Part shown: positions 13,118-58,401 of the stretch, piece by piece | How the letters are laid out: each line of letters opens with the position of its first letter | How positions within the stretch are numbered: position 1 is the first letter of the stretch | From: Deltaproteobacteria bacterium | GTDB lineage: Bacteria; Myxococcota_A; UBA9160; SMWR01 | DNA: 64,000 nt | Direction of reading: 5' to 3' | Assembly: GCA_019310965.1 (NCBI GenBank) | Contig: JAFDDG010000030.1 | Coordinates: forward strand, 2,390-66,389 | Position numbers and translations under genes: made by a program | Notes under the pieces: generated by a model | Told to the model about the DNA's origin: nothing | Databases searched by the model: none | The model's input: only the letters and a program-made list of their open reading frames with translations

Positions 13118-13154
13118 CGAAGGCAGACGAAAGCGGGGGGCCGTCGAGGTCGTT

Positions 13155-13979: not shown

Positions 13980-14051
13980 GTCGGGAGGATAACTGCCCGA
14001 ATGCGGCGAGCAATTCCGTGCGCCGGATGTCGAGCCGTCCCTTCGACTCGC

Positions 14052-14516: not shown

Positions 14517-14618
14517 TGCAGGACCCTCCTTGGTTGAATCGTCCGTTTCAGTCACGAGCACCGAGCGCCTTCGCTCCGTTGTCGACCGGGGGCGGCGAAG
14601 CGCTGCGGCGAACGGGCT

Positions 14619-16451: not shown

Positions 16452-16502
16452 GCCCTCGCCTTCTTAGTTTGTCGCCGGTCGGGCGACAATACCACGAACG
16501 GC

Positions 16503-18158: not shown

Positions 18159-18207
18159 CGGCTCTCCTCCTCTGGGATGGGAATCCATGCTATACCATTT
18201 ATCTGCG

Positions 18208-18220
18208 TTGTAAATTGTAA
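18208..18220. promoter_or_regulatory. AT-rich TTGTAA direct repeat in the cyp51/tetR divergent intergenic region (candidate operator/promoter)
   Basis: ttgtaaattgtaa sits in a 139-nt intergenic region. It is flanked at a distance by GGGATGGG (18174..18181) and its complement CCCATCCC (18246..18253). Confidence 0.3.
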
Positions 18221-18297
18221 TTTTGCCCCGTGGACCTGGAGAAGCCCCATCCCCTCTGAGATGGCCCCCGGGACTCGGAGCAGAGCGCGAGGCAGGA

Positions 18298-31952: not shown

Positions 31953-33373
31953 CACGGAGCCATCCCGCGCACGAAGGGAAAGCCCGCGCCGCCGGTGGCC
32001 AGCAGATCGACGAGCAGCGGAAGATCCCGCGCCCAGGCGAGAAGCAGCCAAGCGGCCGTCGCCACGCAGAGACCCGCGGCCTGGTGATCGCACCGCAGGC
32101 GCTCGAGCGCGGCTTGGCGGCTCGTCACGAGCCATGCGCAGCCGAGCAGGAAGAACGGCCGCAGCGGCACGGCGTAACGCGAGAGCGAGTACGTGAGGCC
32201 GAAGAGCACGACGGCGTGCAGCAGCGCCATGAGCGCGATGCCACGGAGCGGCGAGGCTGGCTGGAGAATCAGGCCCGCGCTCCCGCCGGCGTAGAGCAAC
32301 GCAGTCCACAGGACACACCACACGGTGAGCAGCGCCGTCAGGGAGGGAGAAGATGCCACGCCGTACCAGTCGTTGCGCAGATGCCGCAGCACGAAGTTGT
32401 CGAGAGTGAAGAGGTGCACCGCCTCCCACAGAGACTTCCGCACGAAGCGGCCCGGCGCTTCGGCGATGCGCCGCCCGGCGCGGCGCAGCGCCAGGCGCTG
32501 TGCCGCGCCGGGGTCGCGCTCGGCGGCCACCATGTAGTGAAGATTGCCGATGGCAGCCCAGGCCGGGCTCCAGCGGTCGTCCTTGTCGACGCGATGCGCT
32601 CCCGGCTCGGTGCCGACCAGCACGTTGTAGGGCCCGTTGGTATCGACCAGAAAGAATGCGCCGGTCTGCCGCGCATTGCGCAACGACCAGGGCAACACCA
32701 CGGCACAGGTCGAGCAGGTCAGGGCGACGAAGGCGATCGCAGCCGGGCGCAGCTGAGCCGTTCCGCGCCGGCGGGCCACGAGCCAGGCCCAGGGCAGCAG
32801 CAGCGGCAAGAAAGTCAGGAGCTGCGGGCGCGCCAGAGCAGCCAGGCCAAAACACAAGCCGCCGACAGCCCAATGTGCCGGGCGCACGCGCCGTGCATCG
32901 AAGACGAGCGCGGCAATGCCGCCCAGCAAGAGCGCGATGTAGAGAGTCTCGGACCAGAGCAGGTGAGAGAAGCCGATCAGCACCGGGTCGAGAGCGAAGC
33001 CGAAGCCCGCGACCCTCGCCGCCACGCGACCCGAGAGCCGCTCTGCAAGCCATGCGATCGCAAAGACCGAAAGCGCGCCCAGCAGCGCCTGCACGGCTCG
33101 TACGGCGACCGCCCCGGGACCTAGCTCCACGAAGAACGACATGAACGCCGGATGCAGCGGCGGACGAAAATTCGACCCGAAGCCCTCCCCCCGCGCCAGT
33201 CCTTCCGCGAGTCGCCAGTAGTCGATCTCGTCGTTGACCGGCGTCGGGTCGGGGAACCACGCGACGAGACCGCCGCGCAGCAGCAGAGCGAGGCCGAACG
33301 CCCCGAGGATCCAGGGATCGCGCAGACAACTCGGATTGGCGGGACTCTCGACCGGCATGATGGGCACCGCCAT
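31952..33373 (-). CDS. GT-C fold glycosyltransferase (ArnT/PMT-like, GT39/GT83-type)
   Basis: ORF 31952..33397; start ATG 33373 or 33358. There are many TM helices. The first-loop motif is NDEIDYWRLAEGLARGEGF. Its stop overlaps the downstream ATG (TGATG). Confidence 0.65.
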   Translation of the reverse strand: MAVPIMPVESPANPSCLRDPWILGAFGLALLLRGGLVAWFPDPTPVNDEIDYWRLAEGLARGEGFGSNFRPPLHPAFMSFFVELGPGAVAVRAVQALLGALSVFAIAWLAERLSGRVAARVAGFGFALDPVLIGFSHLLWSETLYIALLLGGIAALVFDARRVRPAHWAVGGLCFGLAALARPQLLTFLPLLLPWAWLVARRRGTAQLRPAAIAFVALTCSTCAVVLPWSLRNARQTGAFFLVDTNGPYNVLVGTEPGAHRVDKDDRWSPAWAAIGNLHYMVAAERDPGAAQRLALRRAGRRIAEAPGRFVRKSLWEAVHLFTLDNFVLRHLRNDWYGVASSPSLTALLTVWCVLWTALLYAGGSAGLILQPASPLRGIALMALLHAVVLFGLTYSLSRYAVPLRPFFLLGCAWLVTSRQAALERLRCDHQAAGLCVATAAWLLLAWARDLPLLVDLLATGGAGFPFVRGMAP

Positions 33374-33435
33374 GGTAGCCGGCCCGCCGCGGCACAAGGG
33401 CTCTGGTATGATCGCCGACTCGACCGCACGAGGAG

Positions 33436-33651
33436 ATGAGGGCGTTGCCCGGCCTGCACGATTTCACGGCTCAGCGAAACGACGGCGATCTGCAGTCGCT
33501 CGGCGGCTGTGCCGGCAAGGTCTGCCCGATGGGGAAGGTCGCCTCGACGTTCCCGCTCGATGGACCGGCAGCCGCCGTGACGCGCTTCGAACCACCGGCG
33601 GAGCCCGGGGCGTCGGAGTTGCTGGCTGCCATCGAGTCCGCGCTCGGGTGA
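33436..33651 (+). CDS. Small ORF (71 aa) with faint SelD/PurM-N-terminal-like GCAGK motif; may be a gene remnant or non-coding
   Basis: ORF 33436..33651. Third-codon positions are G/C-rich like real genes. LQSLGGCAGKVCPMGKV weakly recalls the SelD motif GxGCxxKxxPxxL. Confidence 0.25.
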   Translation: MRALPGLHDFTAQRNDGDLQSLGGCAGKVCPMGKVASTFPLDGPAAAVTRFEPPAEPGASELLAAIESALG

Positions 33652-33673
33652 GCGGGCGCCGTCGCGCGCGACC

Positions 33674-35035
33674 ATGCCGGCGCGTCGCCTCGCCCCCTGG
33701 CTCGCTCTCGCGCTGCTCGCAGGAAGCGTGCGCTGGGGCGCATTCGAAACGGCGCAGCCCGTCGCGCTGCTGGGCGACGAGAACTACTACGTCGAGGTCG
33801 CCGACAATCTGGCGCGAGGACGCGGTCACCTCTACGTCGGCCAGCTGGAAGGCGAGGCGCGGGCCTGGCGCCCACCCGGCCACGCATGGTTGCTCTCGCT
33901 CGGCATCGACACGCAACGGCCGGCGCGAGAGGCGCCGGAGCTGGACACGGCCGTCGTCGCACGACTGCAGCGCTCGCAAATCTGGCTCGGCACCGCGCTG
34001 GTACTGCTCACCGCCGCGCTCGGCCGCTCGCTCTTCGACGCGCGCAGCGGCTGGCTGGCCGGCGGCCTGGCGGCGCTCTATCCGGCCCTGATTGCCCACA
34101 GCCACTATCTCTGGTCGGAAACCTGGTTCTCGGTTCAGCTGCTCGCTGCGCTGTGGGCGGCCGTCAAGACGGCGGAGCGGCCGGGCCCGGCGGGTGTGGT
34201 GGCCACGGGCCTCGCATTCGGTGTGGCGGCGCTGACCCGCGAGCAGGCGCTGGTGGCGGCGGCAGCCTGCGGGCTCTGGTGGCTCAGCGAAGCGGACGGG
34301 CGCCGCGCCGCACTCGTCCGCGCAACGGCCATGCTGGCTCTGGCCTTCGCGGTGACCCTGCCGTGGATGGCGCGCAATCACACGAGCTTCGGGCGCTGGA
34401 TCGGCATCTCGACGGTCGGCTGGTTTGCGGCGGCCGAGGGCAACAGCCTCGAGTCACCCGAGTGGTGGCGGCGCCGCGGCCCGGTGCAGGGCCAGTTTCA
34501 CGCCGACTACTTCTCGACGCGGAACGAGGGCGAGCGGCTCGACCTGGCACGCGAGCACGCTATCGCACGCATCGTGGCAGAGCAGCCGGCGTGGCTCTTC
34601 AAGAAGAGCGTCCGCAATCTGGCGCTTCTCGCGAACCCCGACTCCGTCGTTCGCACCAAGGTTCGCAACGGAGCCTACGGGGACCGCCCGGCAGCCCCGG
34701 CGCGCTGGCTCCTGGCCGCAAGCACGCCGGCCTGGCTCGCCCTGGCGAGCTGCGCGGCGCTCGGGATCGCCGCGTCCCGGGCGGGAGGACGTCGGCTCTT
34801 GGCAGTGCTGCTGCTGGGTGCGGTGGCCGCGCTTCACATTGCCACCAACGCCACACCACGCTTTCGCGTGCCGTGGCTGCCGCTGCTGTGCGTCTACGCC
34901 GCACACGCCGTCTGGCTGGGTCGCGGGCTCTTCGCCCGCCTCGACCGCCGGGGGCTCGCGGGCGCGGGCATCGCCCTCGTCTTCCTCTTCGGCGTCGCCC
35001 TGCCCTACTACTGGATGTGGGGCGGTCGGCCCTGA
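33674..35035 (+). CDS. GT-C fold glycosyltransferase (ArnT/PMT-like)
   Basis: ORF 33674..35035. The first-loop motif is GDENYYVEVADNLARGRG. It is polytopic, with a HYLWSETWF motif paralleling HLLWSETLY in 31952..33373. Confidence 0.65.
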   Translation: MPARRLAPWLALALLAGSVRWGAFETAQPVALLGDENYYVEVADNLARGRGHLYVGQLEGEARAWRPPGHAWLLSLGIDTQRPAREAPELDTAVVARLQRSQIWLGTALVLLTAALGRSLFDARSGWLAGGLAALYPALIAHSHYLWSETWFSVQLLAALWAAVKTAERPGPAGVVATGLAFGVAALTREQALVAAAACGLWWLSEADGRRAALVRATAMLALAFAVTLPWMARNHTSFGRWIGISTVGWFAAAEGNSLESPEWWRRRGPVQGQFHADYFSTRNEGERLDLAREHAIARIVAEQPAWLFKKSVRNLALLANPDSVVRTKVRNGAYGDRPAAPARWLLAASTPAWLALASCAALGIAASRAGGRRLLAVLLLGAVAALHIATNATPRFRVPWLPLLCVYAAHAVWLGRGLFARLDRRGLAGAGIALVFLFGVALPYYWMWGGRP

Positions 35036-38830: not shown

Positions 38831-41164
38831 TCAGAGCTCGCCTTCCGGATCCAACTCCTCTTCGTCGCGGAATCCCTTCTCGACCCGCCGCTGGAGATAG
38901 CCGGCGTGGTTCTCGATGGGCGTCACCGTGTACTGCATCCGCACCGGAGCGGAGGGAGGCGGATCCATCTCGATCCGGGCGAGCTGGATACCCTGGGGTG
39001 GGCGATCGCCGGCACGCTTGATCTCGAAGCGACGTTTGCGGAAGATGAGCTCCGCCTCACCCGGCTCGGCCAGCTTTGCACGAGTGCGCACGCTCGACCG
39101 CGTAACCGGAATGTCACTGGCCAGCGTGTAACGCAGCTTGAAGACCTGCTGCGGTTCGAGGTGGATCCACGACGTCAGCACGAACCGCTGCTTGCCAACA
39201 TTCACGCGATGGTTCAAGACGACGGGAGTCGGCCCGCGGGACTCTACCTCGATGTCGACCTCGACCCACTCGTCGGGTTCGATCGCGAGCTGGGAGACAC
39301 TCTGGACCCAGAGCCATTCCGGCTGAGGCACGGTGACCACGCGCTGCGCGATGAGCGGCACCTGCAGAGCCGCACTGGCGGTGGGCGGCAGGCTGCGTTG
39401 CCCCATGTCACGGACCGTCTCCGCAAAGCGCTCGTCGTCGTGGATCCGGCGCAGACGCGGACCGAAGATCTTGCCACCCGGTGCCTGGTAGTGCGCACAG
39501 CGCCGCCCCTCCTGCTTGCATTGTACGAGCGTACCGTCGGGCTTGAGCCCCCCCACCATGCGATCATTCAGATTGCCATAGAACAGGACGCGCCCGCGAT
39601 CGTACGTGCGGAAGATGCTGCGCCCGAAGAAATCCAGGCCCCGGTGATCGATCCCGAGGTAGTCGACCACGGACAGCGCAACGTCGCTCTGAGCGAACGG
39701 CTCTCCGACGACGCGCCGCTCGCGTTCCGGCAGCATGGCCACGAGAAAACCCCAGTTCTGACTCAGCAGGGCCGCGGTGCCATCCTCGAGTTCGCCAAAA
39801 CTGCCACGCGACTCGTCCGAGGTGACGAGAATCAACGTGTCTTCGCGCAGCCCCCGCGCGTCCAATGCCTGGAAGAATCTCATCAACGCATCGTCGAGAT
39901 AGGAGAACGCGCGGCGCACGTCCGTGCGGTACGGCGACTCGTAGGAAGGCGGAACGACGAACGGATGGTGCGTGCCCGCATTCAACAGGGTGAGGAACCA
40001 CGGCTCGTCGCGTGCCTCGAGCTCGTCGAGCTTCGTGAGTGCCTGCTCGAAAAAGGCGCGATCGTCGACGCCCCACTCCGTGCGATGATAGGCGCGTTGA
40101 AACCATCCATCGCCGAGCGTCTCGTCGAAACCTATCGCCGGCATGAAGCTGTCCTTCTGCATGAAACCGAGCGGAGCCGTCTGGAGATAAACGGTGTGGT
40201 AGCCGTGTGCGGCCAGCACGCCGGGCAGGCAACGGCGCCAGGGCCGGCCCGCCGCCACGGCCATCTTCGGCGTGCCCGCCAGCAGCCGCGGATACTCGCC
40301 ACAGAGAAGCGAGTACAGGCCGCGATTGGTGCGGCGGTTGTGCGTGAAGAAGGTGGCATAGCCGACGTTCTGGGCGAAGCGTTGATCGAGCAGGGGCATC
40401 CGATTGCGGGGGCTGCGCCCTTGATACTTCGCTGCCGTATCCAGGTAATTGCCCGACACCGACTCGAGCACGATCAGCAGCACGTTCTTTCCCCGACCGT
40501 CGACCGGAAAGGCGCGTGGCGCATCGAGATCGGCGCCGACAGCGGGAACCAGGTCACGCATCGCCGACACCGACGTGGCGAAATCGTTGGCATCGCTGCG
40601 CCCGGCCAGCCAGTCGGTGTTGTAGGCAATGACGTTCTCCTGACGCCATGTGGAGCGCGTCACGTCCACTGGCCACAGCAGCACGCCCCCGAGCAGAAAA
40701 CCGCCCAGCAAGAGCGGAGCCACGGCATCCCGGAGCGCCGCCGTTCTCAGACCCCAGGCTGCCAGCCCGAACGAGGCGAGCACCCCGGCAGCGAGTGCCA
40801 GCGGGTGCATCAGGGCGAGCGCCGAGCCTCGCACGAACGTCGGGGCGTCGAAGTACTTGAGGTCCAGAGGCGAAGCGATCATCCCCAGGGCCTGAACCGT
40901 TTCAAAGTTCGCGTAGTAGCCGAGTGCGAGCAACGCGGCGCACACCGCCGCCGGCCAGCGCGAGATGCGCCCCAACGACAAGAGGAACGCGAGCGTCAGC
41001 GCTGCGATCGCCGCATCGGCAACGAAACCCCGCAAGTCCGCCACGCCGACGACCGCTGACACTTCGGCCATGGCGAGCGCGCGGTAGGCCCAGGGCGCGA
41101 GCAGCACCGCAAGAACGGCTGCAGCGCGGCGCTTCGTCCTGCGTTCGTTCGGTCCGGGCGCCAC
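38831..41164 (-). CDS. LtaS/OpgB-like membrane phosphotransferase, paralog of 28252..30546
   Basis: GTG 41164 in ORF 38831..41389, chosen by alignment with the paralog N-terminus. Recognisable strings are NVLLIVLESVSG, THNRRTNRGLYSLLCGE and LNAGTHHPFVVP. A shared C-terminal string is LRYTLAS. Confidence 0.7.
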   Translation of the reverse strand: MAPGPNERRTKRRAAAVLAVLLAPWAYRALAMAEVSAVVGVADLRGFVADAAIAALTLAFLLSLGRISRWPAAVCAALLALGYYANFETVQALGMIASPLDLKYFDAPTFVRGSALALMHPLALAAGVLASFGLAAWGLRTAALRDAVAPLLLGGFLLGGVLLWPVDVTRSTWRQENVIAYNTDWLAGRSDANDFATSVSAMRDLVPAVGADLDAPRAFPVDGRGKNVLLIVLESVSGNYLDTAAKYQGRSPRNRMPLLDQRFAQNVGYATFFTHNRRTNRGLYSLLCGEYPRLLAGTPKMAVAAGRPWRRCLPGVLAAHGYHTVYLQTAPLGFMQKDSFMPAIGFDETLGDGWFQRAYHRTEWGVDDRAFFEQALTKLDELEARDEPWFLTLLNAGTHHPFVVPPSYESPYRTDVRRAFSYLDDALMRFFQALDARGLREDTLILVTSDESRGSFGELEDGTAALLSQNWGFLVAMLPERERRVVGEPFAQSDVALSVVDYLGIDHRGLDFFGRSIFRTYDRGRVLFYGNLNDRMVGGLKPDGTLVQCKQEGRRCAHYQAPGGKIFGPRLRRIHDDERFAETVRDMGQRSLPPTASAALQVPLIAQRVVTVPQPEWLWVQSVSQLAIEPDEWVEVDIEVESRGPTPVVLNHRVNVGKQRFVLTSWIHLEPQQVFKLRYTLASDIPVTRSSVRTRAKLAEPGEAELIFRKRRFEIKRAGDRPPQGIQLARIEMDPPPSAPVRMQYTVTPIENHAGYLQRRVEKGFRDEEELDPEGEL

Positions 41165-41261
41165 GCGGTCACGATAGCACCCGATGGGAAGAGCAAGCCC
41201 ACGCCAAACGTGCGCTCCGACATCGTGCGACACGATGGTGCCAGCGTTACCCTCCGACCGC

Positions 41262-42572
41262 ATGCAGGGCTGGGTTTCCGACGACGCGGCAGAGAGCGAG
41301 GCCGCACAGCAGCGGCTGCGGACGGCCATCCGCACGAACCGATGGATCATCGCCGCCCTCGTGGTGGCTGTGGCGTCGCCGCTCTTCATTCACTACACGG
41401 GCTTCAAACCGGCGAAAGAACTCTCGGGACTCACCTACCCGAAGATCTTCAAGTACTCGTATCGCACGACGCCGGGCCGGGCGCCGCATCACGGCATCGA
41501 CTTCAGCCAGATCTGGCTTTCGGCGGGCAGGCTGTCGGCGGGCCAGCCGGTCTACCATCCGGTCGACAAAGCGAAATGGCGACGGAGGTGGAGCTCCACC
41601 TACCACCCGGTCATCCACTGGCTCTACGTACCACTGGGCAGGGTCGCTTTTCCAACAGCTCTCGTCGTACACAACCTGGCGGGGATCGGACTGCTGTTGC
41701 TGGTTTCCGCCCTGGCGTTGCGCCGCGCCGGCTGCACGCAGGCAATCCCGAGCGTCCTCGTGGCAATCCTGGCGGCGATGTACCTGACCCCGGTTGGGCT
41801 CTTCCACCTGGAACGCGGGCAGCTGGACGTGTTCGTCGCTGCCTCCATCGTCTGTGTGGTGACCGCTTTCGTGCGTGGCGGTTCGGCCTGGGCGATCGCG
41901 GCTGGCGCGATCTCGATGCTCAAGGTACAGGCCTGGATCTTCGTGGGCTTTTTCTGGCTGGTGGCCGCCGCGCTCTGGGGTTTGCGCGATCGCAATGTCT
42001 GGTGGGTACCTGCCACCATCCTCGGCCTCAACCTGATCTTCCTGTATCAGGTGATCGACTGGGTGCCGTCGTTTCTCTACGTTGCGAACAATACGTCCTA
42101 CTTCGGTCCGACTTTCACGCGGATCCTTCCCAGATGGTTCGCGTTCGGCCTGCCGTTCGTCAGCACGGCCCTCGTGGGAGTGTGCGCCTACGCCGCGCTT
42201 GCGGCGCGCGGACAGCTCGCGGACACAGATGCGCGCCGACAGCTGCTGGCGCGCATCTCATTTCCCTTCGCCGCGGCGCTGACGTTGCAGACCGTCTGCG
42301 GCACACCCGTCACTCACGACTACCGCCTGATCGCATTGCTCGGCCTACTGCCGGTACTGGCAACCTGGTGCGCCCGAGGCGAAGGAGTGCCCGCGTGGTT
42401 GAGGCGCGCGAGCTGCATCGGATTCGGGTTGATGCTGATGTTCGCCCTGCGCGTCGCCCCACTGACGACACTCTCGTTTCTCAACGTCGCGCAGCTCCTG
42501 CTGGCCTTCTCGCTGTTGTTCTTGCTCGCGACGTTGACTCTGGCGGTCCGGCGCGGCACCACTTCTGCCTGA
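41262..42572 (+). CDS. DUF2029 / GT87-like polytopic glycosyltransferase
   Basis: ATG 41262 (alternative 41235) in ORF 41184..42572. The loop motif is GIDFSQIWLSAGRLSAGQPVY. There are many TM helices. Confidence 0.5.
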   Translation: MQGWVSDDAAESEAAQQRLRTAIRTNRWIIAALVVAVASPLFIHYTGFKPAKELSGLTYPKIFKYSYRTTPGRAPHHGIDFSQIWLSAGRLSAGQPVYHPVDKAKWRRRWSSTYHPVIHWLYVPLGRVAFPTALVVHNLAGIGLLLLVSALALRRAGCTQAIPSVLVAILAAMYLTPVGLFHLERGQLDVFVAASIVCVVTAFVRGGSAWAIAAGAISMLKVQAWIFVGFFWLVAAALWGLRDRNVWWVPATILGLNLIFLYQVIDWVPSFLYVANNTSYFGPTFTRILPRWFAFGLPFVSTALVGVCAYAALAARGQLADTDARRQLLARISFPFAAALTLQTVCGTPVTHDYRLIALLGLLPVLATWCARGEGVPAWLRRASCIGFGLMLMFALRVAPLTTLSFLNVAQLLLAFSLLFLLATLTLAVRRGTTSA

Positions 42573-47994: not shown

Positions 47995-48972
47995 GTGAGC
48001 GGGGAGGCGCGGGAGTCGTTGTTGCGGTTGTGGGGCCCTGTCATTCCAGGAGTGCTGGCTGCGCTCTCGTTCGCTGTCGCGGGGCCCGGGCGCGCGGCGC
48101 CCCCCGAAGCACCGGAGGCCGCCGGGCCGCCGGGCGGCGAGCCCGACTACAGCGAGCTCTGGCTCAGTGCCGGCATTCGCTACAACAACAACTTCTCGAT
48201 CAACCCCGACCGGATCGAGTTCACCAGCTCTCCGGTGCAGGAGCTGGGCGTGGTTGCCTACGACGATCGCGCGCTCTGGGGCTCGCGCTTCCGTAGCAAC
48301 GGAGCGATCGAGATCTACACCGACCTGGAAGATTCCGGTCGCGACGTCCAGCTGCTGTCGGCGTCTACCGGGCCGGTCTTCGAGCTCGGCGAGAGCTGGC
48401 GCCTCCACACCGCGGTGGGCGGCGAGGCCTCGTGGTTCGGCTACGAGTTCTACACCGGCCTGGGTGTGGCGTACTTCACGCTCGAGCGGGAGGGCTCCAC
48501 GTTGCGCCAGGTGGAGCTCGACGTCGGGGTGGAGGCCTTCGGCAAGGAGTTCGGGGGCGACAACGTGCCGTGGCTCGACCTCTACGTAGACCTGGCGTGG
48601 GACAGCCTCCTCTGGCAGGACGACGAGCTCGCCGCGCGAGTCTTCTTCGAGCACTACCACGCCGACGAAGCGAGCTTCCGCTACAGCCAGGTCGCACTGA
48701 CGCTAGGCCACGACGCGCCCCTGGCGGGCCAGCTCAGCGGGGCGGCTTCGCTGACGGGCTCGCGGCAGTGGTACTATGGCTCGGATCCGGGGGTGTCGGG
48801 GGACCGGCGCGACACGACGCTCACCGCCATTGCCTCGTTCACCTGGTCGGGGCTCTTCCTGGAGCCGCTGTCGGCCGAGCTTCGCGGGCTCTACGAACGC
48901 GACTGGTCGAACGACGACTTCCAGGACTACGACGGACAGTCGGTGGTCTTCTATCTGCATTGGAGGTTCTGA
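47995..48972 (+). CDS. Outer-membrane beta-barrel protein (family not recognised)
   Basis: GTG 47995 (uncertain by about 30 nt) in ORF 47815..48972. It has a signal-like segment, VIPGVLAALSFAVAG. Alternating beta-strand pattern, with a C-terminal YLHWRF ending in Phe. Confidence 0.55.
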   Translation: MSGEARESLLRLWGPVIPGVLAALSFAVAGPGRAAPPEAPEAAGPPGGEPDYSELWLSAGIRYNNNFSINPDRIEFTSSPVQELGVVAYDDRALWGSRFRSNGAIEIYTDLEDSGRDVQLLSASTGPVFELGESWRLHTAVGGEASWFGYEFYTGLGVAYFTLEREGSTLRQVELDVGVEAFGKEFGGDNVPWLDLYVDLAWDSLLWQDDELAARVFFEHYHADEASFRYSQVALTLGHDAPLAGQLSGAASLTGSRQWYYGSDPGVSGDRRDTTLTAIASFTWSGLFLEPLSAELRGLYERDWSNDDFQDYDGQSVVFYLHWRF

Positions 48973-50099
48973 TGGGCGGGAGCCGGACTCTCGCACACCG
49001 GGGAGAACCAATGGCGGCGCTGCGGTCTGCACTACTCGGGGCGCTTGTCGCGCTGGGCGTGCTCGGCGCGACGGAGCCAGCCGCTCTCGGCGCCGAGGGC
49101 ATCTGGATCCTAGACCAGGAGCCGGGCACGAAGGACGACCTGTGGCACTACCGGACGATCCCGCAGGTCTACGGCACCGTGCCGGAGTCGGACTTCGCTG
49201 CTCCCCGCGACGTGGCGGTCGCCCCCGACGGCCGCATCTGGGTGCTGGCCGACGCCCCGGGCAGCGCCGAGGACCTCTGGGTGTACGACCCGTCGAACGG
49301 CAGCTGGAGCGCGCTCCCCAGCTCCGACTTCATCAATCCCCGAGCCTTCACCTTCGCGCCGGACGGGAGGCTCTGGATCCTCGACGAAGACAGCGGCACG
49401 GACGACGAGGTCTGGAGCTACGACTTCGACACCGAATTCTACGAAACGCTGCCCGATTCGTATTTCGTCGACCCCCAGGACATCGTCTTCGGGCCGGACG
49501 GGAAGCTCTGGATCCTCGATCGCGAGGCCGGCGCGGTCGACGAGGTCTGGAGCTACGACTTCGGCACGAACTTCTACGAGACCATCGCCGGCTCGTCGTT
49601 CGTGGATCCGCGGGAGCTGGCATTCGCTGCCGACGGCCGGCTCTGGATCTTGGACCAGGAGGCGGGTACGACCGAGGACATCTGGGCCTACGAATTCGTG
49701 GGCCAGACCTACGCGACGTTGCCCGGCTCGGATTTCCTCGATCCCCGCCACCTCGCATTCGACGCGTCGGGGATGTTGTGGATTCTCGCCCAGGAGGCGG
49801 GCAGCAACGACGACCTCTGGCGCTACGACTTCGGAACGGAAACGTACGAGACCCTGGCCGGCTCCGGCTTCGTCGACCCCCGGGCGTTTGGCTTCAGCAC
49901 GGCCTTCGTGCCGCCGGTACCGGCGCTCGGCCCCGGGGGCGGAGCTCTCCTGGCGGGTCTGCTTGCGCTCGCTGGTGCGCGCCGGAGACGGGCAGTCAGG
50001 CGACGCGTGGGACGCAGCGGCGCTGCCAGCGGGGACCGCGCGCCTGTGGGTCGAGGTCCCGCGGGGAAGCACCATCGAGCAATGCCGCTTGTCGCGTGA
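48972..50099 (+). CDS. Secreted six-repeat (45-aa) beta-propeller-like protein with PEP-CTERM-like tail
   Basis: ATG 48972 overlaps the upstream stop (TGATG); the alternative start is ATG 49011. The signal peptide is MAALRSALLGALVALGVLGA. There are six repeats of LWILDxExGxxDxxWxYDFxTxxYETLxxSxFVDPRxxxFxxDG. Confidence 0.7.
   Translation: MGGSRTLAHRGEPMAALRSALLGALVALGVLGATEPAALGAEGIWILDQEPGTKDDLWHYRTIPQVYGTVPESDFAAPRDVAVAPDGRIWVLADAPGSAEDLWVYDPSNGSWSALPSSDFINPRAFTFAPDGRLWILDEDSGTDDEVWSYDFDTEFYETLPDSYFVDPQDIVFGPDGKLWILDREAGAVDEVWSYDFGTNFYETIAGSSFVDPRELAFAADGRLWILDQEAGTTEDIWAYEFVGQTYATLPGSDFLDPRHLAFDASGMLWILAQEAGSNDDLWRYDFGTETYETLAGSGFVDPRAFGFSTAFVPPVPALGPGGGALLAGLLALAGARRRRAVRRRVGRSGAASGDRAPVGRGPAGKHHRAMPLVA
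49098..49907 (+). repeat. 6 x 135-bp in-frame tandem coding repeats
   Basis: Units start GIWILDQ, IWVLADA, LWILDED, LWILDRE, LWILDQE and LWILAQE. Confidence 0.8.
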
Positions 50100-50154: not shown

Positions 50155-51162
50155 ATGCAGCGCCGGCTCGCCAATTTGCCTCCGACCCCCGACGCAGCGG
50201 CTCTAGACGAGGAGCCCGGCGGGGCCGCCGATCCGGGTGGAGCCGGCTTGTTGGTCGTACACCGCGAGCGCCTCGATCCGCCGGCTGCAGAAGACGAAGG
50301 CGAGGAGCCCACCTGTCCTGCGGACGCCGCCCAGCTCTCGAGCTTCGGTCTCGTCGGCTCGCTGGTGTGGCGGCTGCGCAAGGGCGACCTCTGGGTGCTG
50401 GCCCCCGAGAGCGCGTTCCTGTTCACGAACTGCTGGCGCAAAACGCTGCTGCGCGAGGCGTGGATGCTCGAGCGCGAGACGTCTCCGCGGCAGGCCTATG
50501 CCGAGGGTGTCGCCACCATGGCGCGCCGCTGGATCACGGGCGAGCCCATGCTCCTCGATCTCTACGAGGCAGGGAGCGACGGGGCCGAGCTCGGCATCAG
50601 CTCCGACGAGCTCGGCGGCAACCTCTACGCCACCCGTGTCGATCGCGGGCCTGTCATCTGCCGCAAAGCGGTGCACTTCGGCAGCCAGAAGGGCCTGATG
50701 CTGCGGCCCACGAGCCCGTTGCGGGAGCTGTCGCGTGGTGCCTCGTGGGCGGAGACCCTGCACCACCTGAAGCGCGCCGCCTACGGGCCCGGCTGGATCT
50801 TCCAGCGTTTCACCCGGCGGGACAGCGACGAGGACACCCTGATCCTCGAGATCGACGGCGACATCTACTACCGCGAGCTCGAAGCCGGCGAGACGCTTCG
50901 CACCGACCCGCGCCACTCCTACGCGTGGGACGAATCGGTCTCCTGGAAGCTGGTGCGCTTCGGCAACGTCAGCGATCGCCTGCTGCGCGGAAGCATTCCG
51001 TTCCAGATCGAGTTCGAGGGGCCCGGACGCCTCTGGCTCTCGAACATGTCGTTCGGCGACGGCTACCTGGGAAGCGTGTTCACGCCGTCGCATTGGTTCT
51101 TCTACGCGCAGCAACTGGTGCTGCGCGTATTGCGCGCACTCAACCCGTTCACCTGGATTTGA
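50155..51162 (+). CDS. AIM24/DUF124-like protein with acidic N-terminal extension
   Basis: ORF 50155..51162. The C-terminal LEAGETLRTDPRHSYAWDESV...IPFQIEFEGPGRLWLSNMS resembles the AIM24 GE-x-l-x-vd / GpG-x-vwlq pattern. Confidence 0.45.
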   Translation: MQRRLANLPPTPDAAALDEEPGGAADPGGAGLLVVHRERLDPPAAEDEGEEPTCPADAAQLSSFGLVGSLVWRLRKGDLWVLAPESAFLFTNCWRKTLLREAWMLERETSPRQAYAEGVATMARRWITGEPMLLDLYEAGSDGAELGISSDELGGNLYATRVDRGPVICRKAVHFGSQKGLMLRPTSPLRELSRGASWAETLHHLKRAAYGPGWIFQRFTRRDSDEDTLILEIDGDIYYRELEAGETLRTDPRHSYAWDESVSWKLVRFGNVSDRLLRGSIPFQIEFEGPGRLWLSNMSFGDGYLGSVFTPSHWFFYAQQLVLRVLRALNPFTWI

Positions 51163-51437: not shown

Positions 51438-51465
51438 GCTGAGCCCGGCGCTCTGGGGGCTCAGC
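51438..51465. terminator. Second hairpin, 9-bp perfect stem
   Basis: GCTGAGCCC-ggcgctctg-GGGCTCAGC. It overlaps the stop codon of the minus-strand gene. Confidence 0.4.
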
Positions 51466-53584
51466 GGAGCAGCAGCTGGGTGAGGTTGCTGTAGTCGTCC
51501 GTCCAGGGGCGGATCTCGGCGATCTCCCGACGAAGCTCCTCGTCGACCTCGGCGCTCGCGTTCCACACCTCGGGCTGCTCGATCCATGCGGGATCGCGCG
51601 AGAGCACGATCCAGTCTGCATCGTAGAGACCACGCTCTGCGTCGGCCGGGCCCTCGAAGAGGGCGGGCTCCACGCCTCTTTCCTCCACCAGCTTCCAGAC
51701 CAGTGACGTCAGGTCCACGAAGCTGTTCGAGACGTTCACCGCCAAGAGCCCGTCGGGCGCCAGGTGGCTCAGATAGAGGTCGAAGGCCTCTCGTGTGAGC
51801 AGATGGGCGGGCGGCGCGTCGCCGCTGAAGGCGTCGAGGATCAGCAGGTCGTAGCCCCGGCCGCGGCCTCCCGAGGCGGCGAGCTCGCGCTCGAGGCTCA
51901 GGCGCCCGTCGCCGAGCACCACGTCCCAGCGGGCCGGGGTGTCGGCCAGATAGCTGAAGCGCTCCGTCGCGAGGCGGACCACGAGCGGGTCGATCTCGTA
52001 GAAGCGGATCTCGTCCCCCGGCCGGGCATAGACGGCCAGGGCCCCGGCGCCGAGTCCCAGCACGCCGATGCGCCGCGCGGAGTCCGGTTTGTGCAGGCGC
52101 GCCGCGAGGCCGGCCCCGGTGTCGGCCCCGTAGTAGGCCACGGCCAGACGCCGATTCTCGTCGGCCTGGTACTGGAAGCCGTGGTCGACGGCGCCGTGCA
52201 GCAGCACCCGGGCGTCGTCGCCGAACTCCTCGTCGGGCTCGGTATAGGTGCGCAGGATGCCGTAGAAGTTGCGGTCGACGGTGTCGTAGCCGTCGGTGGC
52301 ATAACGGATGACCTGCCAGTTTCCGGCGACGTAGAGCGCCGTCAACGCAAGCAGCGCCGTCCATGCCAGGCGTGGCCGGCCGCGGAAGAGAGAGGAGCCG
52401 GCGTCGCGCGCGACGCACACCAGGAAGAGCACCACGGTTCCCAACAGGGCGAGGGGAAGCTCGAGGTAGGTATCGAAGAGGCGGGGGGCCACCGCGCCCA
52501 CGAAGATTCCCCCGAGTGCGCCGCCCAGCGACACGGCCAGATAGAAGGCGGTGAGCGCGGTGGTGGGCGGGCGGAGCCGCACGAGCTCGCCGTGGCAGAG
52601 CATGCAGCAGCCGAAGAGGCTCAGGCAGTAGACGACGGCCTGGGCGACGAAGGGCAACAGGTCGACTGTGTCCATCACCCAGAGCAGGGCCCCCAGACAG
52701 AGCGCCGTCGATGGTGCGAAGGCGGCCCGGTGGTAGGCGCGGTCGTCGGCAAACGTGACGATGAACGAGATCAGGTAGAGGGAGAGCGGCAATACCCAGA
52801 GCAAGGGCACCACCGCCACGTCCTGGCAGAGCTGGTTCGTCGTCGCCAGCAGAAGCGCGGACGCACAGGCCGGCAGCAGCACCCAGAGCAGTGCGTCCGA
52901 GCGGGAGAAGGGCGTGGGGGAGAGCGGCTCGGCTGTGCCGGCGGCCGTGGGGGCCGCGGCTTCCTCCGAAGCAGCGCTCGACGCAGACGGCGCCCCGGCT
53001 GGAACGGCTCGCCAGAGCAGTGCCCCGCAGCCGGCGAACCCTAACGCGTAGAGGCCGAAGCCTCCGGACCAGAGCCACGCCTGGCTCTGCAGCCGGAGCC
53101 ATGGCTCGATCACGAACGGGTAGCTCAGGAGCCCCACCAGCGAGCCCGCGTTCGAGAGCGCGTAGAGGCGGTAGGGCGAGGTCGTGGGGAACGCACGCGC
53201 GAACCACGCCTGCAGCAGCGGCGACGTCGTGGCCAGCACGAAGTAGGGAAGGCCCACCACGGCGCCGAGCAGCAGCAGGATGCGCAGCGTGGGGTTGTCC
53301 TCGGCGTCGGGCTTCCAGCCCGCGTCCGGCACGATGGGCAGCACTGCCAAGGCAGCGAGGAGTAGCATCCCCTGCGCGATCACCTGGCGCCGTGCCGAGA
53401 GCCGCCGCGCACTCCAGTCGGCCCACGCGTAGCCCACCAGCAGCAGCATCTGGAAGAAGAGCATGCAGCTGGTCCAGACCGCCGGAGCGCCGCCGAACCA
53501 CGGCAGGATGAAGCGCGCGATCAGCGGCTGCACCTGGAAGAGCAGGAAGGCCCCAATCAGGATCGTCAGCGCGTAGGGCAGCAT
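51461..53584 (-). CDS. Fused polytopic membrane domain / spermidine-synthase-like methyltransferase-fold protein
   Basis: ORF 51461..53584. The N-terminal roughly 450 aa are polytopic (FLLFQVQPLIARFILPWFGG). The C-terminus has RIGVLGLGAGAL, YDLLILDAFSGD and PDGLLAVNVSN. Confidence 0.75.
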   Translation of the reverse strand: MLPYALTILIGAFLLFQVQPLIARFILPWFGGAPAVWTSCMLFFQMLLLVGYAWADWSARRLSARRQVIAQGMLLLAALAVLPIVPDAGWKPDAEDNPTLRILLLLGAVVGLPYFVLATTSPLLQAWFARAFPTTSPYRLYALSNAGSLVGLLSYPFVIEPWLRLQSQAWLWSGGFGLYALGFAGCGALLWRAVPAGAPSASSAASEEAAAPTAAGTAEPLSPTPFSRSDALLWVLLPACASALLLATTNQLCQDVAVVPLLWVLPLSLYLISFIVTFADDRAYHRAAFAPSTALCLGALLWVMDTVDLLPFVAQAVVYCLSLFGCCMLCHGELVRLRPPTTALTAFYLAVSLGGALGGIFVGAVAPRLFDTYLELPLALLGTVVLFLVCVARDAGSSLFRGRPRLAWTALLALTALYVAGNWQVIRYATDGYDTVDRNFYGILRTYTEPDEEFGDDARVLLHGAVDHGFQYQADENRRLAVAYYGADTGAGLAARLHKPDSARRIGVLGLGAGALAVYARPGDEIRFYEIDPLVVRLATERFSYLADTPARWDVVLGDGRLSLERELAASGGRGRGYDLLILDAFSGDAPPAHLLTREAFDLYLSHLAPDGLLAVNVSNSFVDLTSLVWKLVEERGVEPALFEGPADAERGLYDADWIVLSRDPAWIEQPEVWNASAEVDEELRREIAEIRPWTDDYSNLTQLLLR

Positions 53585-53717: not shown

Positions 53718-56700
53718 TCAAGCGCCGAGCGTCGGCTCACCGGTCAGCGTGGGACGTGGGCGGCTCAGCTTTGCCGCCGCGCGTCGCGCGCCGCCGCGAA
53801 GGTCTTCGGCGATCACCATCGCTGCCGGCACCAGAAACAGCGTGAAGGCCGTGGCGACCAGCACGCCGAAAGCCAACGAGACCGCCATCGGCTTCACGAA
53901 CTGCGCCTGGGTGCTGCGCTCGAGCATGATGGGCGTGAGCCCGGCAAAGGTGGTCAGCGAGGTGAGCATGATGGCACGAAAGCGCGACTGACCGGCCTGC
54001 ACCGCCGCGGCTTCGAGCTCCATGCCACCCGCGCGCAATCGATTCAGGAAGGTGACCAGGACCAGGCTGTCGTTCACCACGACGCCGGCGCAGGCCATGA
54101 CTCCCGTCGCCGACAGGAAGCTCATCTGCACGCCGGTCAGAAAGTGCCCGAGTACGGCCCCCACGTAGCCGAACGGAATCACCAGCATGATGATCACGGC
54201 CTGAAGGTAGGAGCGCAGCGGCACGGCCAGCAGCGTGAAGATCGAGAGCAGCGCCACGAGGAAGCCAATGCGCAGGCCGGCGTAGGCCTCGCGGCTCTGC
54301 TTCTGCTCGCCCTGGAGCGAATACTGGACCCCGGGGAACTCCCGCATGAGCGCCGGCAGATCCTTCTCTTCGAGGCTGGTCACCACTTCATTGGCATTGG
54401 CGACGCCGTCGTCGATGTCGGCGATCACGTTGACCCGGCGGGAGCGATTTCGCCGCCGGATCGAGGCCGCCCCCCGACCGAACTCGGCCTGCGCCACCAA
54501 GCGAAACGGCGCCGACGAGCCGTCGGGAAGCCGGATGCGCATGTTCTCGACGTCGGCGAGTGAGCGCCGCTCTTCGAGAGGCCGGCGCACCATCACCTTC
54601 AACTCGTCGGCTCCACGCTGAATGCGCTGGGCCTCGGCGCCGTAGAAAGCCTGACGCACCTGACGTCCGAGATCCTCGAGAGTCAGCCCCTGGGCCTCGG
54701 CCTCGGGCAGGATGCCGAGCTTGAGCTGGCGCTTGCCGTCTCGATTCGAGTCGCGGATGTCGAAGACCCCGGGGTAGGCGGACAGCGCCCCGATCACGGC
54801 GTCCGCCGCCGCCTGGAGCTCGTCGAGGTCGTCGCCCCCCAGCTCGACGTTGATCGGATCGCCGAAGCGTTTGAATGCGCCGACGAAGGTGATCTCTTCG
54901 ACGCCCGGGATCGAGCCGGTGAGCTCGCGCCAGCGATCCGCGATGTCCGAGGCCCGCGATGTCCGAGGCTGTCAGGCTGCGCTCCTCGCTGGCACTCAGC
55001 TCCAGGGTGACCTGACCCAGGTGCGTCCGCCCCGTCGCAACGCGCCGGCCGCTCGCGACGCTGGTACCGTGGTGCTGCCCCAGCGTCGTGAGCGTGTGCA
55101 GCAGCATCGATGGCTCTTCCGGCTCGCTCATCTCGTCGAGCTCCCGAGTGAGCCGCACCGCCGCGGCCTCGAGCTGGGCGACCGCGCCCTCGGTCTGCTC
55201 GGTGGGCGTGCCGAGGGGCATGGTGAGCTGCGCCCGCACGCTGTCGGCCTGCATGGTCGGCGCCATCGACGACTTCACATGCCCGCTCTGGGCCAGACTC
55301 AGACACACGATGAAGCAGCCGAACGACACCGCCGCGGTGAGGTAGCGCCACTCCACGCAGGCGCGCACCGCCGGACCGTAGACACCCTCGGTAAAGGCGC
55401 GCAGCCGCTTCGCGACGCGCGACTGAAAGCGCGCCCAGGCCTTCGAGATCCGTCGCCGTGGCGGCGGCCCGCCGCCGAAGTGCGCCAGGTGCGACGGCAG
55501 CACCAGCTTCGACTCGACCAGCGAGAAGCCGAGAGCCACCATCATCACACCGCTGATGCCGAGCGCCATGAAGCGCGCGTGGCCACCCACCATGGTGAAG
55601 GGCGCGAAGGCGGCGATGGTGGTGAGCACGCCGAAGACCACCGGCGTTGCGACCTCCTGCGTGCCGCGAATCGACGCTCCCAACGGGTCGCCGGGTTGGC
55701 GTTCCTGGTGGGTGTAGATGTTCTCGCCGGTGACGATGGCATCGTCGACCAGGATGCCGAGCGCCATGATGAAGGAGAAGACCGTGAGGATGTTGATGTC
55801 GATGCCCAGCGGCGACATCAACGCCAGCGCTCCACACACCGAGACCGGCACGCCCATCGCCACCCAGAACGCGACTCGCAGCTTCAAGAAGACCGCCAGC
55901 AACACGAGCACCAGCACGAAGCCTCCGGCGGCGTTGCGCAGCATCATGCCGATGCGGTCGGCCAGGTAGAGGGAGTCGTCGTCCCAGACCGTGAGGGTGA
56001 TGCCCGCGGGCAGCCAGAGCCGCGCCGTCTCGATGTAGGCCCGCACCCGGGCCGCGATCTCCAGGGCCTGCTGGTCGCCAACCCGGAAGACCTGCACGAA
56101 GACCGCCGGCTGGCCGTCGAAGCGCGCGTACTTGCCGGTCTCCTCGAAACCGTCCTTCACTTCGGCCACATCACCGACCGTCACCCGCGAGCCGTCTCTC
56201 GCGGTGAGCAGCGGAATGCGCTCGAACTCGACACGGCGATAGGCCTGGCCTTCCGTGCGCAGCAGGATCTCGCCAGCCTGCGTCTTGACCGATCCGCCGG
56301 GAAGGTCGAGCGAGGAGCGTCGGATCGCGAGCACCACGTCGTCGAAGCGCAGGCCACGACGCTGAAGCTCCCTCTCCGACACCTCGATCGAGATCTCGTA
56401 GGGGCGCACGGCGGCCAGCTCGACGTTGGTCACGCCGGGCAACTTGGCGATGTCGTCTCGCACCTTCTGCCCGATGCGCGTGAGCGTGCGCTCATCCGCG
56501 GCGCCGTAGATCGCGATGTCGAGCACCTGGCCCGAGAACTTGACATCCGAGACGACCGGCTCCTCGGTCTCCTTCGGCAGCGTGGTGATGCCGTCGATGC
56601 GCGCCTCGATATGGTCGAGGGCGCGGCCCAGGTCCGCGCCGTCTTCGAGTTCGACGCTGACGTTGGTGGCTCCCTCGTTCGCGGAAGACGTCACATCGAC

Positions 56701-56934
56701 GATGCCCTCGACGCCCTCGATCTCCTCCTCGATGCGGATCGTCACGGACTTCTCCACGTCTTCGGGCGAAGCGCCGGGATACACAACGGTGGCGGAGACG
56801 TAGTTGATCTCGAAATCCGGCCAGACGGACTGCTTGATGTAAGGAGCGGAGAGGAGCCCCGCGATGATGATCGCCATCATCAGCAGGTTGGCGGCGACGT
56901 GGTTCTCGGCGAACCACGCGATGGCCCGGTTCAC
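53718..56934 (-). pseudogene. RND (AcrB/HAE-type) efflux transporter, reading frame broken by a 16-bp tandem duplication
   Basis: GTG 56934 overlaps the MFP stop (GTGA). The N-terminal 655 codons lie in the frame of ORF 54388..57321. After 54954 the AcrB-like sequence continues in the frame of ORF 53718..54797. Removing one 16-bp copy gives one continuous 1066-aa product. Confidence 0.85.
54938..54969 (-). repeat. Exact 16-bp tandem duplication (gene sense GCCTCGGACATCGCGG x2)
   Basis: Plus strand ccgcgatgtccgaggc occurs at 54938..54953 and again at 54954..54969. Confidence 0.95.
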
Positions 56935-58172
56935 GGCGCCCCGCTGGCGGCGGCGCGCAGCTGCATGCCCTCGATGGCGAAGCGCATCGGCGAGACGACC
57001 ACGCGATCGGCGGGCTCGAGGCCCCCGGCGATGATGACCTGGTCGCGCTCCCGTCGCACCAGCTGGACCGGGCGGATCAGGAGCTTGTCGGCCGCGTCGA
57101 GCAAATAGACCCGATCGCCCTCGCGCAGTGCGATCGACGGCAGCACGTACACCCCTTCGAGCTCCCTGCCGGCGATCTCTCCGCGTACGAAGAGCCCCGC
57201 CGGCAGGGGCAGGTGGTCGCTGCCCTGGCGCGCGTACGGATCGTCCACTCGCGCCACCACGTGCAACATGCGCGTGCGCTCGTCGATCTCGCCCTCCGTG
57301 CGCACCAGCCGCGCAGGCCACTCCTGCTCGCGGCCCGCGAGGCGGGCGGTCAGGCGCACGGGGGCGCCGGTCGCGACATCGCCGACGCCGAGCGGCAGCT
57401 CGAGCAGCGCCAGATCGTCGCTCTCGAGGGGCAGGCGCACCTCCGCGAAGTCGACCGCGTAGATGCGCGCGAGCTTGGCACCGAGATTCACGAACTGGCC
57501 GACGTCGACGCTGCGTTCGCGCACGCGGCCGGCAAACGGCGCGCGCAGCACGGTGCGCTCGAGGTCGAGCTGGGCCTGGGCCAGCAGGGCGCGGGCTTCG
57601 TCGAGGGATGCGGACGCTCCGAGCGCCTTCGCCTCGAATTGTTCGAGATCAGCGGCGCTGGCGGCACCGCGCTCGGCCAGCGCCCCGCGACGCTCGGCAT
57701 CCGCGCGCGCGAGCCTGGCCTCGCTGCGGCGCAGCTGCACGGCGGCCCGCGCGCGATCCACGGAGATCCGATGCTCCCGCCCATCCAGCCGCAGCAGCTC
57801 GTGGCCCTCCGCAAAGAAGCCTCCGGCCACCAGTGCGGGCGACACCCAGGTGACGCGACCGTGCACCTCGGCCACGAGATCACTCTCGGTGCGCGGGGAC
57901 ACCGTGCCGTGGGCGACGATCTGCACGCGCAGTGTCTGGGGCTGCGCCTCCAGAACGCGCACCAGCGGAATCAGCGGCTCCGGCTCGACCCGCACCGCCG
58001 TGGGCCGCGTCGCGAAGAGCAGAAACGAGATGGCTGCGGCCGTGGCCAGGGCGGCCAACGGGAGCAACCTCCTGAGGCGCCGCAGGCGCTTGTCCGGCAC
58101 CCGACCCTCGAGCGCGCCCAACGCCGGCTGGGCCTCGTCACGCGCCTCGGCCGACAGCGGATCGCTGCTCAT
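56931..58172 (-). CDS. RND efflux membrane fusion (periplasmic adaptor) protein
   Basis: ATG 58172 with a gggagg RBS, in ORF 56931..58310. It has an N-terminal TM helix and an alpha-hairpin region. RAPFAGRV is the lipoyl-like motif, and the C-terminal domain is beta-rich. Confidence 0.8.
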   Translation of the reverse strand: MSSDPLSAEARDEAQPALGALEGRVPDKRLRRLRRLLPLAALATAAAISFLLFATRPTAVRVEPEPLIPLVRVLEAQPQTLRVQIVAHGTVSPRTESDLVAEVHGRVTWVSPALVAGGFFAEGHELLRLDGREHRISVDRARAAVQLRRSEARLARADAERRGALAERGAASAADLEQFEAKALGASASLDEARALLAQAQLDLERTVLRAPFAGRVRERSVDVGQFVNLGAKLARIYAVDFAEVRLPLESDDLALLELPLGVGDVATGAPVRLTARLAGREQEWPARLVRTEGEIDERTRMLHVVARVDDPYARQGSDHLPLPAGLFVRGEIAGRELEGVYVLPSIALREGDRVYLLDAADKLLIRPVQLVRRERDQVIIAGGLEPADRVVVSPMRFAIEGMQLRAAASGAP

Positions 58173-58401
58173 CGTCTGCCTCCCGCACCGCTCCCGACGA
58201 CAGCGCGCCCGAACCGGGGCCCGCGGCACGCCGCGTACTGCGATCGTGTGCGTCGTTCGAACTCGCGGGACGAACGGCGGGCCGTCCCGGCTCCAGGGGC
58301 GCCCCGACATGATACGCCTCGAACCCCGGGGGGTCCAACAGCGGGGTGGCCCGACGCCCTCTGCCCGGCCGGCCGAACGCGGCCCGCCCCACCGCGTCGG
58401 C

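Follow-up and report, generated by a model that had tools for sequence, protein, structure and literature searches.

Two adjacent genes in a 64-kb stretch of DNA (the window; G+C content 68.6%) from an uncultured 'Deltaproteobacteria bacterium' probably encode, judging from their sequences, a surface-display unit of a kind not yet described, comprising an outer-membrane beta-barrel and a secreted six-bladed propeller. The source, a metagenome-assembled genome (MAG), is identified by the barrel protein, which is identical to the NCBI entry MBW2270478.1 (locus tag JRH16_18085), annotated as hypothetical. We are highly confident of the identity of the two proteins and of their linkage. By analogy with the Slam barrels of type 11 secretion, we assign a probability of roughly 0.45 to the functional reading that the barrel would act as a minimal Slam-like translocon exporting its dedicated neighbouring cargo. 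The elements of the pair are the following.

47995 to 48972, forward strand: outer-membrane barrel gene, an open reading frame (ORF) with a GTG start encoding 325 aa, with a signal-like N-terminus, a Pro-rich linker and a predicted 14-strand barrel
48962 to 48974, forward strand: GGAGG followed by a TGATG stop/start overlap, a candidate start of the propeller gene, read from the sequence
48972 to 50099, forward strand: propeller gene, encoding 375 aa from 48972 or 362 aa from 49011
49000 to 49013, forward strand: GGGGAG and the alternative start ATG at 49011, giving a product that begins MAALRSALLGALVALGVLGA and has a compact signal peptide
49101 to 49910, forward strand: six tandem 135-bp (45-aa) repeats, one per blade, from Tandem Repeats Finder (TRF) and identity analysis
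49917 to 50009, forward strand: tripartite tag of VPALG, the hydrophobic helix GGGALLAGLLALAGA and the cluster RRRRAVRRR, from alignment, the TIGR04174 model and AlphaFold2

The initial annotation had described an outer-membrane barrel beside a secreted six-repeat protein, and both identifications hold. The barrel protein begins with a hydrophobic signal-like segment followed, by inspection, by a Pro-rich linker of about 25 aa, AAPPEAPEAAGPPGGEP; its body is beta-rich and its C-terminal end reads ...VVFYLHWRF. The neighbouring protein carries a signal peptide of its own. In an AlphaFold2 model computed from ten sequences the barrel has 14 beta-strands, the first beginning at residue 52 directly after the signal segment and the linker. 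Foldseek comparison of this model with the PDB retrieves generic porins only (OmpT, OmpF, Omp32 and OmpG), the top TM-score belonging to the 14-strand OmpG (0.60/0.69), and no solved structure is sequence-related to the barrel. The fold search speaks for a reading in which the adjacency of the two genes is functionally meaningless, the barrel being either a general porin or an outer-membrane protein with a structural role, and common descent within one uncultured lineage explaining the synteny. We regard that reading as very unlikely, in part because profile homology points to translocons and not to diffusion porins.

Searches of Pfam and NCBIfam with the barrel return nothing except a sub-threshold Autotransporter match (E 0.057, 13.6 bits; cut-off 26), which lies so far under its cut-off that an autotransporter identity was dropped. 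Of the two export routes with which the initial annotation had compared the pair, two-partner secretion finds no support: the barrel gives no POTRA, Bac_surface_Ag or Omp85 match and is modelled with 14 strands, not 16, and a TpsB/Omp85 identity was discarded with zero matches. Identity as a PEP-CTERM-associated outer-membrane protein was set aside as well, NCBIfam giving no match for the barrel and BBP2_2 appearing merely sporadically in distant relatives.

The comparison with Slam fares better, being borne out by remote homology (hhalign 91-97%). A word-indexed search with the barrel finds just ten relatives, none of them annotated. A full hidden Markov model (HMM) search of 1.84 billion cluster representatives with the barrel profile yields 114 proteins at the threshold of E<=1e-3, mostly TPR-plus-barrel proteins; most measure 370-400 aa and place an N-terminal TPR region ahead of a C-terminal barrel whose end motif, Y.YE.N.SND....Y.NH......W.F, matches that of the window barrel family. 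Pfam detects TPR_14 in 47 of the 71 relatives scanned, TPR_Slam in 7 and PF04575 in 6 (best E 6.9e-19). One relative, P0124, is a full-length PF04575 member (68.9 bits) with a TPR region. Alignment of the barrel's own family (A1) with P0124 gives an hhalign value of 91.5% (E 8.7e-7) over 256 columns, that is, over the whole barrel, and a 28-sequence alignment of relatives (A5) gives 97.2% (E 3.5e-11) with the TPR region included; for a second protein, P0127, the values are 78% with A1 and 96% with A5. Reversed and shuffled control targets stay at or below 2.3% (E>=0.02), so the similarity to Slam exceeds what beta-barrel periodicity or composition would give. The window barrel has no TPR match in Pfam. 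By these profile comparisons the barrel is demonstrably related to the Slam/type 11 secretion barrels, as a divergent member that has lost the TPR domain, and its family grades into DUF560/Slam within a large, mostly unannotated TPR-plus-barrel family. All 832 of the 832 Slam-related sequences in a 2017 survey carry a TPR N-domain, none being DUF560-only (PMC5449769), and NilB tolerates removal of its entire TPR domain with its function kept (PMC8406197).

The 114 representatives (P0034-P0038, for example) are of interest in their own right as a family of about 380 aa in which a signal peptide and a single TPR unit (LNLRYARLAE..G..RKALAAYERVL..DP.N) precede a barrel of the 14-strand type that closes with W.F. 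Pfam largely misses them as barrels, and they resemble 'mini-Slams'.

Conservation of the gene pair, which the initial annotation had proposed as a check, was assessed by tblastn across all fetched loci together with gene calls. Barrel and propeller genes lie within about 1 kb of each other in 8 of 8 recovered loci, which represent four clades and three layouts (identities are to the window proteins).

Barrel, then propeller: the window, L001, L002 and L003 (barrel 58-61%, propeller 60-65%)
Barrel, opposite-strand Band_7 gene, propeller: L006 and L007 (barrel 43% and 39%, propeller 44% and 50%)
Propeller, then barrel: L004 and L005 (barrel about 30-32%, hhalign 99.6%; propeller 40-41%)

Every propeller homologue with sufficient flanking sequence adjoins a barrel gene. 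The flanking genes common to the window clade and L004/L005 (an AIM24 gene and a fused MFS/spermidine synthase gene) are entirely different in L006 and L007. A meaningless adjacency would be in keeping with a small family drawn from related metagenomes, and with the AIM24 and fused MFS/spermidine-synthase genes being likewise syntenic in several loci. Set against this, the adjacency of barrel and propeller outlasts inversion of the gene order, insertion of an opposite-strand gene, full turnover of the flanks and divergence to about 30% identity.

The propeller relatives were assembled from several searches. A word-indexed search with the propeller sequence gives zero matches, itself included, neither start variant being in the collection; relatives P0011-P0014 were recovered by a profile built from four homologues. 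In a scan of species-representative genomes the propeller profile finds one true relative (L007) and generic NHL proteins, and the barrel profile finds no locus. A pattern-based metagenome scan with a narrow barrel alignment (A7) finds TPR-bearing P0027-type relatives only. The locus labelled L060 is the same as L007 (MAG Meg19_46_Bin_145).

A second class of partner extends the pattern. The TPR-less barrels P0024 and P0025, which share 34-36% identity with the window barrel and 42% with one another, each adjoin an orthologous (57% identical) signal-peptide protein of GC-type dockerin repeats, which lies downstream of the barrel in L061-63 and upstream of it in L070-72. The L061 partner (2832-4004, forward strand) consists almost entirely of such repeats (NF041540, 96.8 bits), and its orthologue in L070 (3743-4903, forward strand) gives a weak Pfam Dockerin_1 match only. 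Because these sister barrels pair with a dockerin-repeat protein instead of a propeller, the barrel appears to be the fixed element of the unit and the cargo the element that changes; type 11 systems likewise combine a constant exporter and varying cargo (PMC5449769, PMC12282271). This independent recurrence with a second partner family is a further point against a meaningless adjacency. A broader generalization, which we consider unlikely, is that TPR-less Slam-like barrels would be dedicated outer-membrane exits for single neighbouring cargoes in lineages beyond those whose type 11 secretion has been studied, the propeller barrel acting downstream of a PEP/IPTL-CTERM-type tag. Separately, the gene upstream in L062 encodes a 537-aa secreted protein with Cys-rich tandem repeats.

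The propeller protein consists, in order, of a Sec-type signal peptide, a six-bladed NHL-like propeller, a C-terminal segment resembling a sorting tag, and a basic tail. The six 45-aa units described by the initial annotation stand, with exact 45-aa spacing and a 135-bp period detected by TRF, and share the consensus LWILDxExGxxDDxWxYDFxxxxYxTLPxSxFxDPRxxxFxxDGx; calling them near-identical overstates the case, since pairwise amino-acid identity averages 45% (range 33-60%, compared with 6.9 +/- 0.9% for shuffles) and DNA identity is 53-72%. The six-bladed propeller that it proposed is supported by an AlphaFold2 model from a five-sequence alignment, which shows six four-stranded blades (24 strands) and a helix, with pLDDT (the model's per-residue confidence) mostly 80-96 in the blades and 76.7 overall, and by Foldseek matches to six-bladed Kelch propellers and designed six-blade proteins (E ~1e-14). 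The repeat, which it did not recognise as NHL or Kelch, is recognised by Pfam: matches to NHL (39 bits; cut-off 20), Kelch_3 (32.1; cut-off 22) and Reg_prop (31; cut-off 20.4) all exceed their cut-offs. The propeller fold, then, is ordinary. The domain is very acidic (isoelectric point 4.05), and the protein is not a lipoprotein because it contains no Cys.

The initial annotation overlooked the C-terminal tag, in which VPALG, a helix and a cluster of Arg residues follow one another. The architecture is that of a predicted PEP-CTERM/IPTL-CTERM style sorting signal. The helix occupies residues 308-330 of the AlphaFold2 model, VPALG does not vary among the four close homologues, and the clade at 41% identity preserves VPAL. 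Against the IPTL-CTERM model (TIGR04174; cut-off 20.5) the window protein reaches 15.8 bits and its counterparts in L001-L003 reach 15.5-17, all four close homologues staying just under the cut-off. After the tag, a basic, non-conserved tail continues to 50096 in the window, and in P0011 and P0012 (the L004/L005 clade) the tag stands at the very C-terminus.

These features bear directly on the main rival explanation, in which the propeller, instead of being cargo, would be anchored in the inner membrane as a periplasmic partner of the barrel and would supply the protein binding of the lost TPR domain, in the manner of BamB with BamA, for some other substrate or as a membrane tether. An uncleaved C-terminal helix with a basic cytoplasmic tail would make a stable inner-membrane anchor, and the approximately 30 residues beyond the basic cluster in the window are more like a cytoplasmic tail than like a terminal sorting signal. 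Moreover, every barrel seen with an adjacent partner gene is TPR-less, and the P0027-type relatives, which bear TPR, have no such partner. We nevertheless judge this explanation unlikely. The invariance of VPALG just outside the helix, and the persistence of VPAL at 41% identity, favour a recognition or cleavage site over a simple anchor; the terminal position of the tag in the L004/L005 clade is that of true sorting signals; near-threshold IPTL-CTERM scores recur in 4 of 4 close homologues; and the sister barrels have a dockerin-repeat partner that is without any anchor.

Similar tags occur on other proteins close to the pair. The products encoded just upstream of it end in VPLPEP...RRWRRRR in L004 (6237-7949, forward strand), PLPEP...RWRRRR in L005 (3374-5101, forward strand) and VPTATG...RRLARR in L003 (3-1136, forward strand). 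Because such tags are found on neighbours in L003 and in L004/L005, they suggest a genome-wide C-terminal sorting system with several substrates. This lends some weight to another alternative, namely that a pathway independent of the barrel, such as an exosortase-like enzyme together with type 2 secretion, as reported for other C-terminal sorting tags, carries the propeller to the surface, the barrel being only its docking site or receptor in the outer membrane or a co-regulated channel for the ligand of the propeller. In its favour are the three-part, CTERM-type build of the tag and the dependence of MYXO-CTERM and GlyGly-CTERM proteins on type 2 secretion; sorting of this kind would be genome-wide and not specific to the pair. 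Nonetheless, the characterised members of the barrel's superfamily are protein translocons, and the sister barrels pair with a second, untagged class of partner; we consider a separate route quite unlikely.

A diderm precedent bears on where tagged proteins may end up. The S-layer protein mela_00855 of Methylomirabilis lanthanidiphila, a diderm, has a signal peptide and an IPTL-CTERM domain (PMC8671808), and CTERM-type tags can therefore go with proteins located beyond the outer membrane. As for an enzyme that would act on the tag, one candidate was considered and rejected: the CPBP/Rce1-like intramembrane protease encoded two genes upstream of the barrel in L060 (4541-5254, forward strand) is not conserved in the other loci. 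The CPBP/Rce1-like family includes the myxosortases, which process MYXO-CTERM tags.

If the propeller is indeed the cargo of a minimal Slam-like translocon, a four-step route can be proposed. Sec would export the propeller, whose C-terminal helix would transiently anchor it in the inner membrane; a putative sorting peptidase would then cleave at or near VPALG and free the propeller; and the neighbouring barrel would finally move it across the outer membrane or mount it on the surface in a Slam-like fashion. Barrels of the sister clades may play the same role for their secreted dockerin-repeat neighbour.

Several observations weigh against export of the propeller by its neighbour. The barrel model is of modest confidence (pLDDT 60.5, predicted TM-score 0.61). 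PF04575 is the sole recurrent Pfam family within the barrel's own family, which backs the link to Slam, yet its matches, in 6 of 10 members (best E 0.0024), all fall below threshold; the window protein itself gives no PF04575 match even at E<=10 (gathering score 22 bits). The propeller does not have the 8-strand C-terminal barrel by which type 11 cargo is known to be recognised, and it gives no TbpBBD or lipoprotein-C match in Pfam or NCBIfam. The tag cannot be the general recognition signal of these barrels, because a C-terminal helix is missing from the dockerin-repeat partner. The tag is followed in the window clade by 30-40 basic residues that are not conserved, an arrangement unusual for CTERM-type signals, and no sorting enzyme (exosortase, rhombosortase or CPBP) is found among the 36 window ORFs scanned. 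TPR-bearing marine relatives of the P0027 type (L064, L066-68) lie among metabolic genes with no adjacent secreted partner, and beside the TPR-less P0031, whose contig spans 3.2 kb, no partner is seen, an AIM24 gene lying 24 nt upstream of it. Finally, shared ancestry accounts for part of the synteny, since the propeller loci all come from related uncultured lineages.

The junction between the two genes offers two start sites for the propeller. The TGATG overlap reported by the initial annotation is present at 48970-48974, with GGAGG 5 nt upstream of the ATG at 48972; a further ATG in the same frame, at 49011, is preceded by GGGGAG at the same 5-nt distance, and it is the propeller protein translated from this ATG with which the homologues line up at their N-termini. 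The gap between barrel and propeller is 2, 43 or 50 nt in L001-L003 and, in the window, either an overlap or 38 nt; in other clades an opposite-strand gene intervenes or the gene order is reversed. Translational coupling, which the initial annotation had treated as a feature of the pair, is consequently possible in the window and is not conserved, because spacing and order differ among the homologues. No promoter-like or terminator-like sites are found between 47500 and 51500, so that gene spacing is the one indication of an operon.

The nearest downstream neighbour of the pair is a further gene of the shared flank.

50155 to 51162, forward strand: AIM24-family (PF01987) gene of unknown function (Pfam AIM24, 54 bits)

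AIM24 genes also neighbour the pair in L001 (6987-8084), L002 (4156-5133), L004 (10270-11247, reverse strand) and L005 (7474-8382, reverse strand), and in L065 one (100-1068) lies 24 nt upstream of a barrel relative without an adjacent propeller; none is present in L006, L007 or L061. AIM24 may be a third component or may represent mere shared synteny. Farther along, at 51461-53584 on the reverse strand, the window encodes a membrane protein of 707 aa that resembles a fusion of MFS and spermidine synthase (NF037959, 61.9 bits), and its gene is syntenic with the pair in L001 (8354-10444, reverse strand) and L004 (11318-13399, forward strand), with 53-77% identity. The gene that separates barrel and propeller in the second layout encodes a small Band_7/SPFH protein (L006 7331-7879, reverse strand; L007 5080-5637, reverse strand, which is L060 7040-7597, reverse strand). 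No second tagged ORF is found in the 64-kb window.

Other observations on the window are independent of the pair. An AcrB/RND transporter gene (53718-57321, reverse strand) seems to be split, possibly by a frameshift or an assembly error: the ORF at 53718-54797 covers only positions 695-1018 of the ACR_tran profile, the upstream portion lying in other ORFs, and a gene for an HlyD-type adaptor follows at 56931-58310. A 1127-aa ORF (1499-4882, forward strand) with a strong coding signal (G+C at third codon positions, 0.89) and no Pfam match at E<=1e-4 lies just past a gene with a TonB C-terminal domain (430-1620). An oxygenase cluster at 12224-18936 encodes a luciferase-like monooxygenase, a fatty-acid hydroxylase, an FMO-like monooxygenase, a cytochrome P450-ferredoxin fusion and a TetR regulator. 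Elsewhere the window encodes two large proteins with sulfatase domains, at 28252-30546 and 38831-41389, as well as a pair of PMT_2 glycosyltransferases at 31952-35035.

Characterised type 11 systems combine a TPR-plus-barrel exporter with a cargo that carries an 8-strand barrel handle, and nearly all that is known of type 11 (Slam) secretion comes from Proteobacteria that live with hosts. The present locus suggests a barrel-only relative of Slam, with a quite different cargo, in uncultured environmental bacteria, and it points to a large unannotated TPR-plus-barrel sister family, the 114 cluster representatives described above. It also provides a testable candidate for how PEP-CTERM/IPTL-CTERM-tagged proteins cross the outer membrane. 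Should the broader generalization about TPR-less barrels, which we consider unlikely, be true, it would be the first concrete link between PEP/IPTL-CTERM sorting signals and a specific outer-membrane translocon, and it would show that Slam-type barrels can export a six-bladed propeller or dockerin repeats, folds without the canonical 8-strand targeting domain. As a self-contained display unit of two genes, its compact barrel being 290 residues long, the pair could, in addition, serve surface-display engineering.

Comparison with known systems places the pair among several partial likenesses. BamA and BamB combine a barrel with a periplasmic beta-propeller and thus offer an analogue for a propeller that is partner and not cargo. 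BamB has 8 blades and is held in the outer membrane as a lipoprotein, whereas the 6-bladed window propeller carries no lipid and bears a tag at its C-terminus, with no sequence relationship to BamB seen. Two-partner secretion through TpsB/Omp85 and the autotransporters resemble the pair in that a barrel is encoded beside, or fused to, its passenger; they differ in strand number (16 in TpsB and 12 in classical autotransporters, compared with 14 in the window barrel) and in the window barrel having no POTRA domain. The ScyD, ScyE and ScyF proteins of the scytonemin cluster share an NHL-type beta-propeller and a signal peptide with the window protein, and ScyF, which NCBIfam names an NHL-type PEP-CTERM protein (NF035926, scyF_NHL_VPEP), has a PEP-CTERM tag as well. 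The NCBIfam propeller matches are weak (ScyE_fam, 32 bits), far under the cut-offs of 80 and 350 bits, and the window has neither a scytonemin gene context nor a sign of the same enzymatic role.

The tag is closest to those of IPTL-CTERM and PEP-CTERM proteins, with which the propeller shares an N-terminal signal peptide, VPALG (compare IPTL and VPEP), a helix and an Arg-rich cluster. The propeller departs from them in its sub-threshold score, in its approximately 30 extra residues, and in having no cognate enzyme or tagged paralogue in the 64-kb window. We know of no dedicated outer-membrane barrel linked to IPTL-CTERM or PEP-CTERM tags.

For the barrel, the closest known systems are those of the Slam/T11SS group (PF04575, SlipAM; Neisseria Slam1 and Slam2, Xenorhabdus NilB, and HrpB). 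The window barrel differs from them in lacking a periplasmic TPR domain and in falling under the PF04575 threshold. Where Slam cargo has a TbpB-like or lipoprotein-C 8-strand barrel, the window barrel is partnered by a six-bladed propeller whose tag includes a membrane helix (in sister clades, by a dockerin-repeat protein), and its host is an uncultured 'Deltaproteobacteria' MAG. The likenesses are nonetheless extensive. A 14-strand barrel is predicted here as it is for Slam (PMC5449769), and profile-profile similarity spans the whole barrel, including the shared motifs GxRY..N.S..PD in strand 1, D.Q.vSa.tGP, RRD and the C-terminal Y.YE.N.SND...Y..H.....W.F. The window barrel gene adjoins the gene for a Sec-exported partner, as Slam genes typically adjoin those of their cargo (PMC5449769), and the partner is unlipidated, a state also known for soluble cargo of type 11 systems (PMC12282271).

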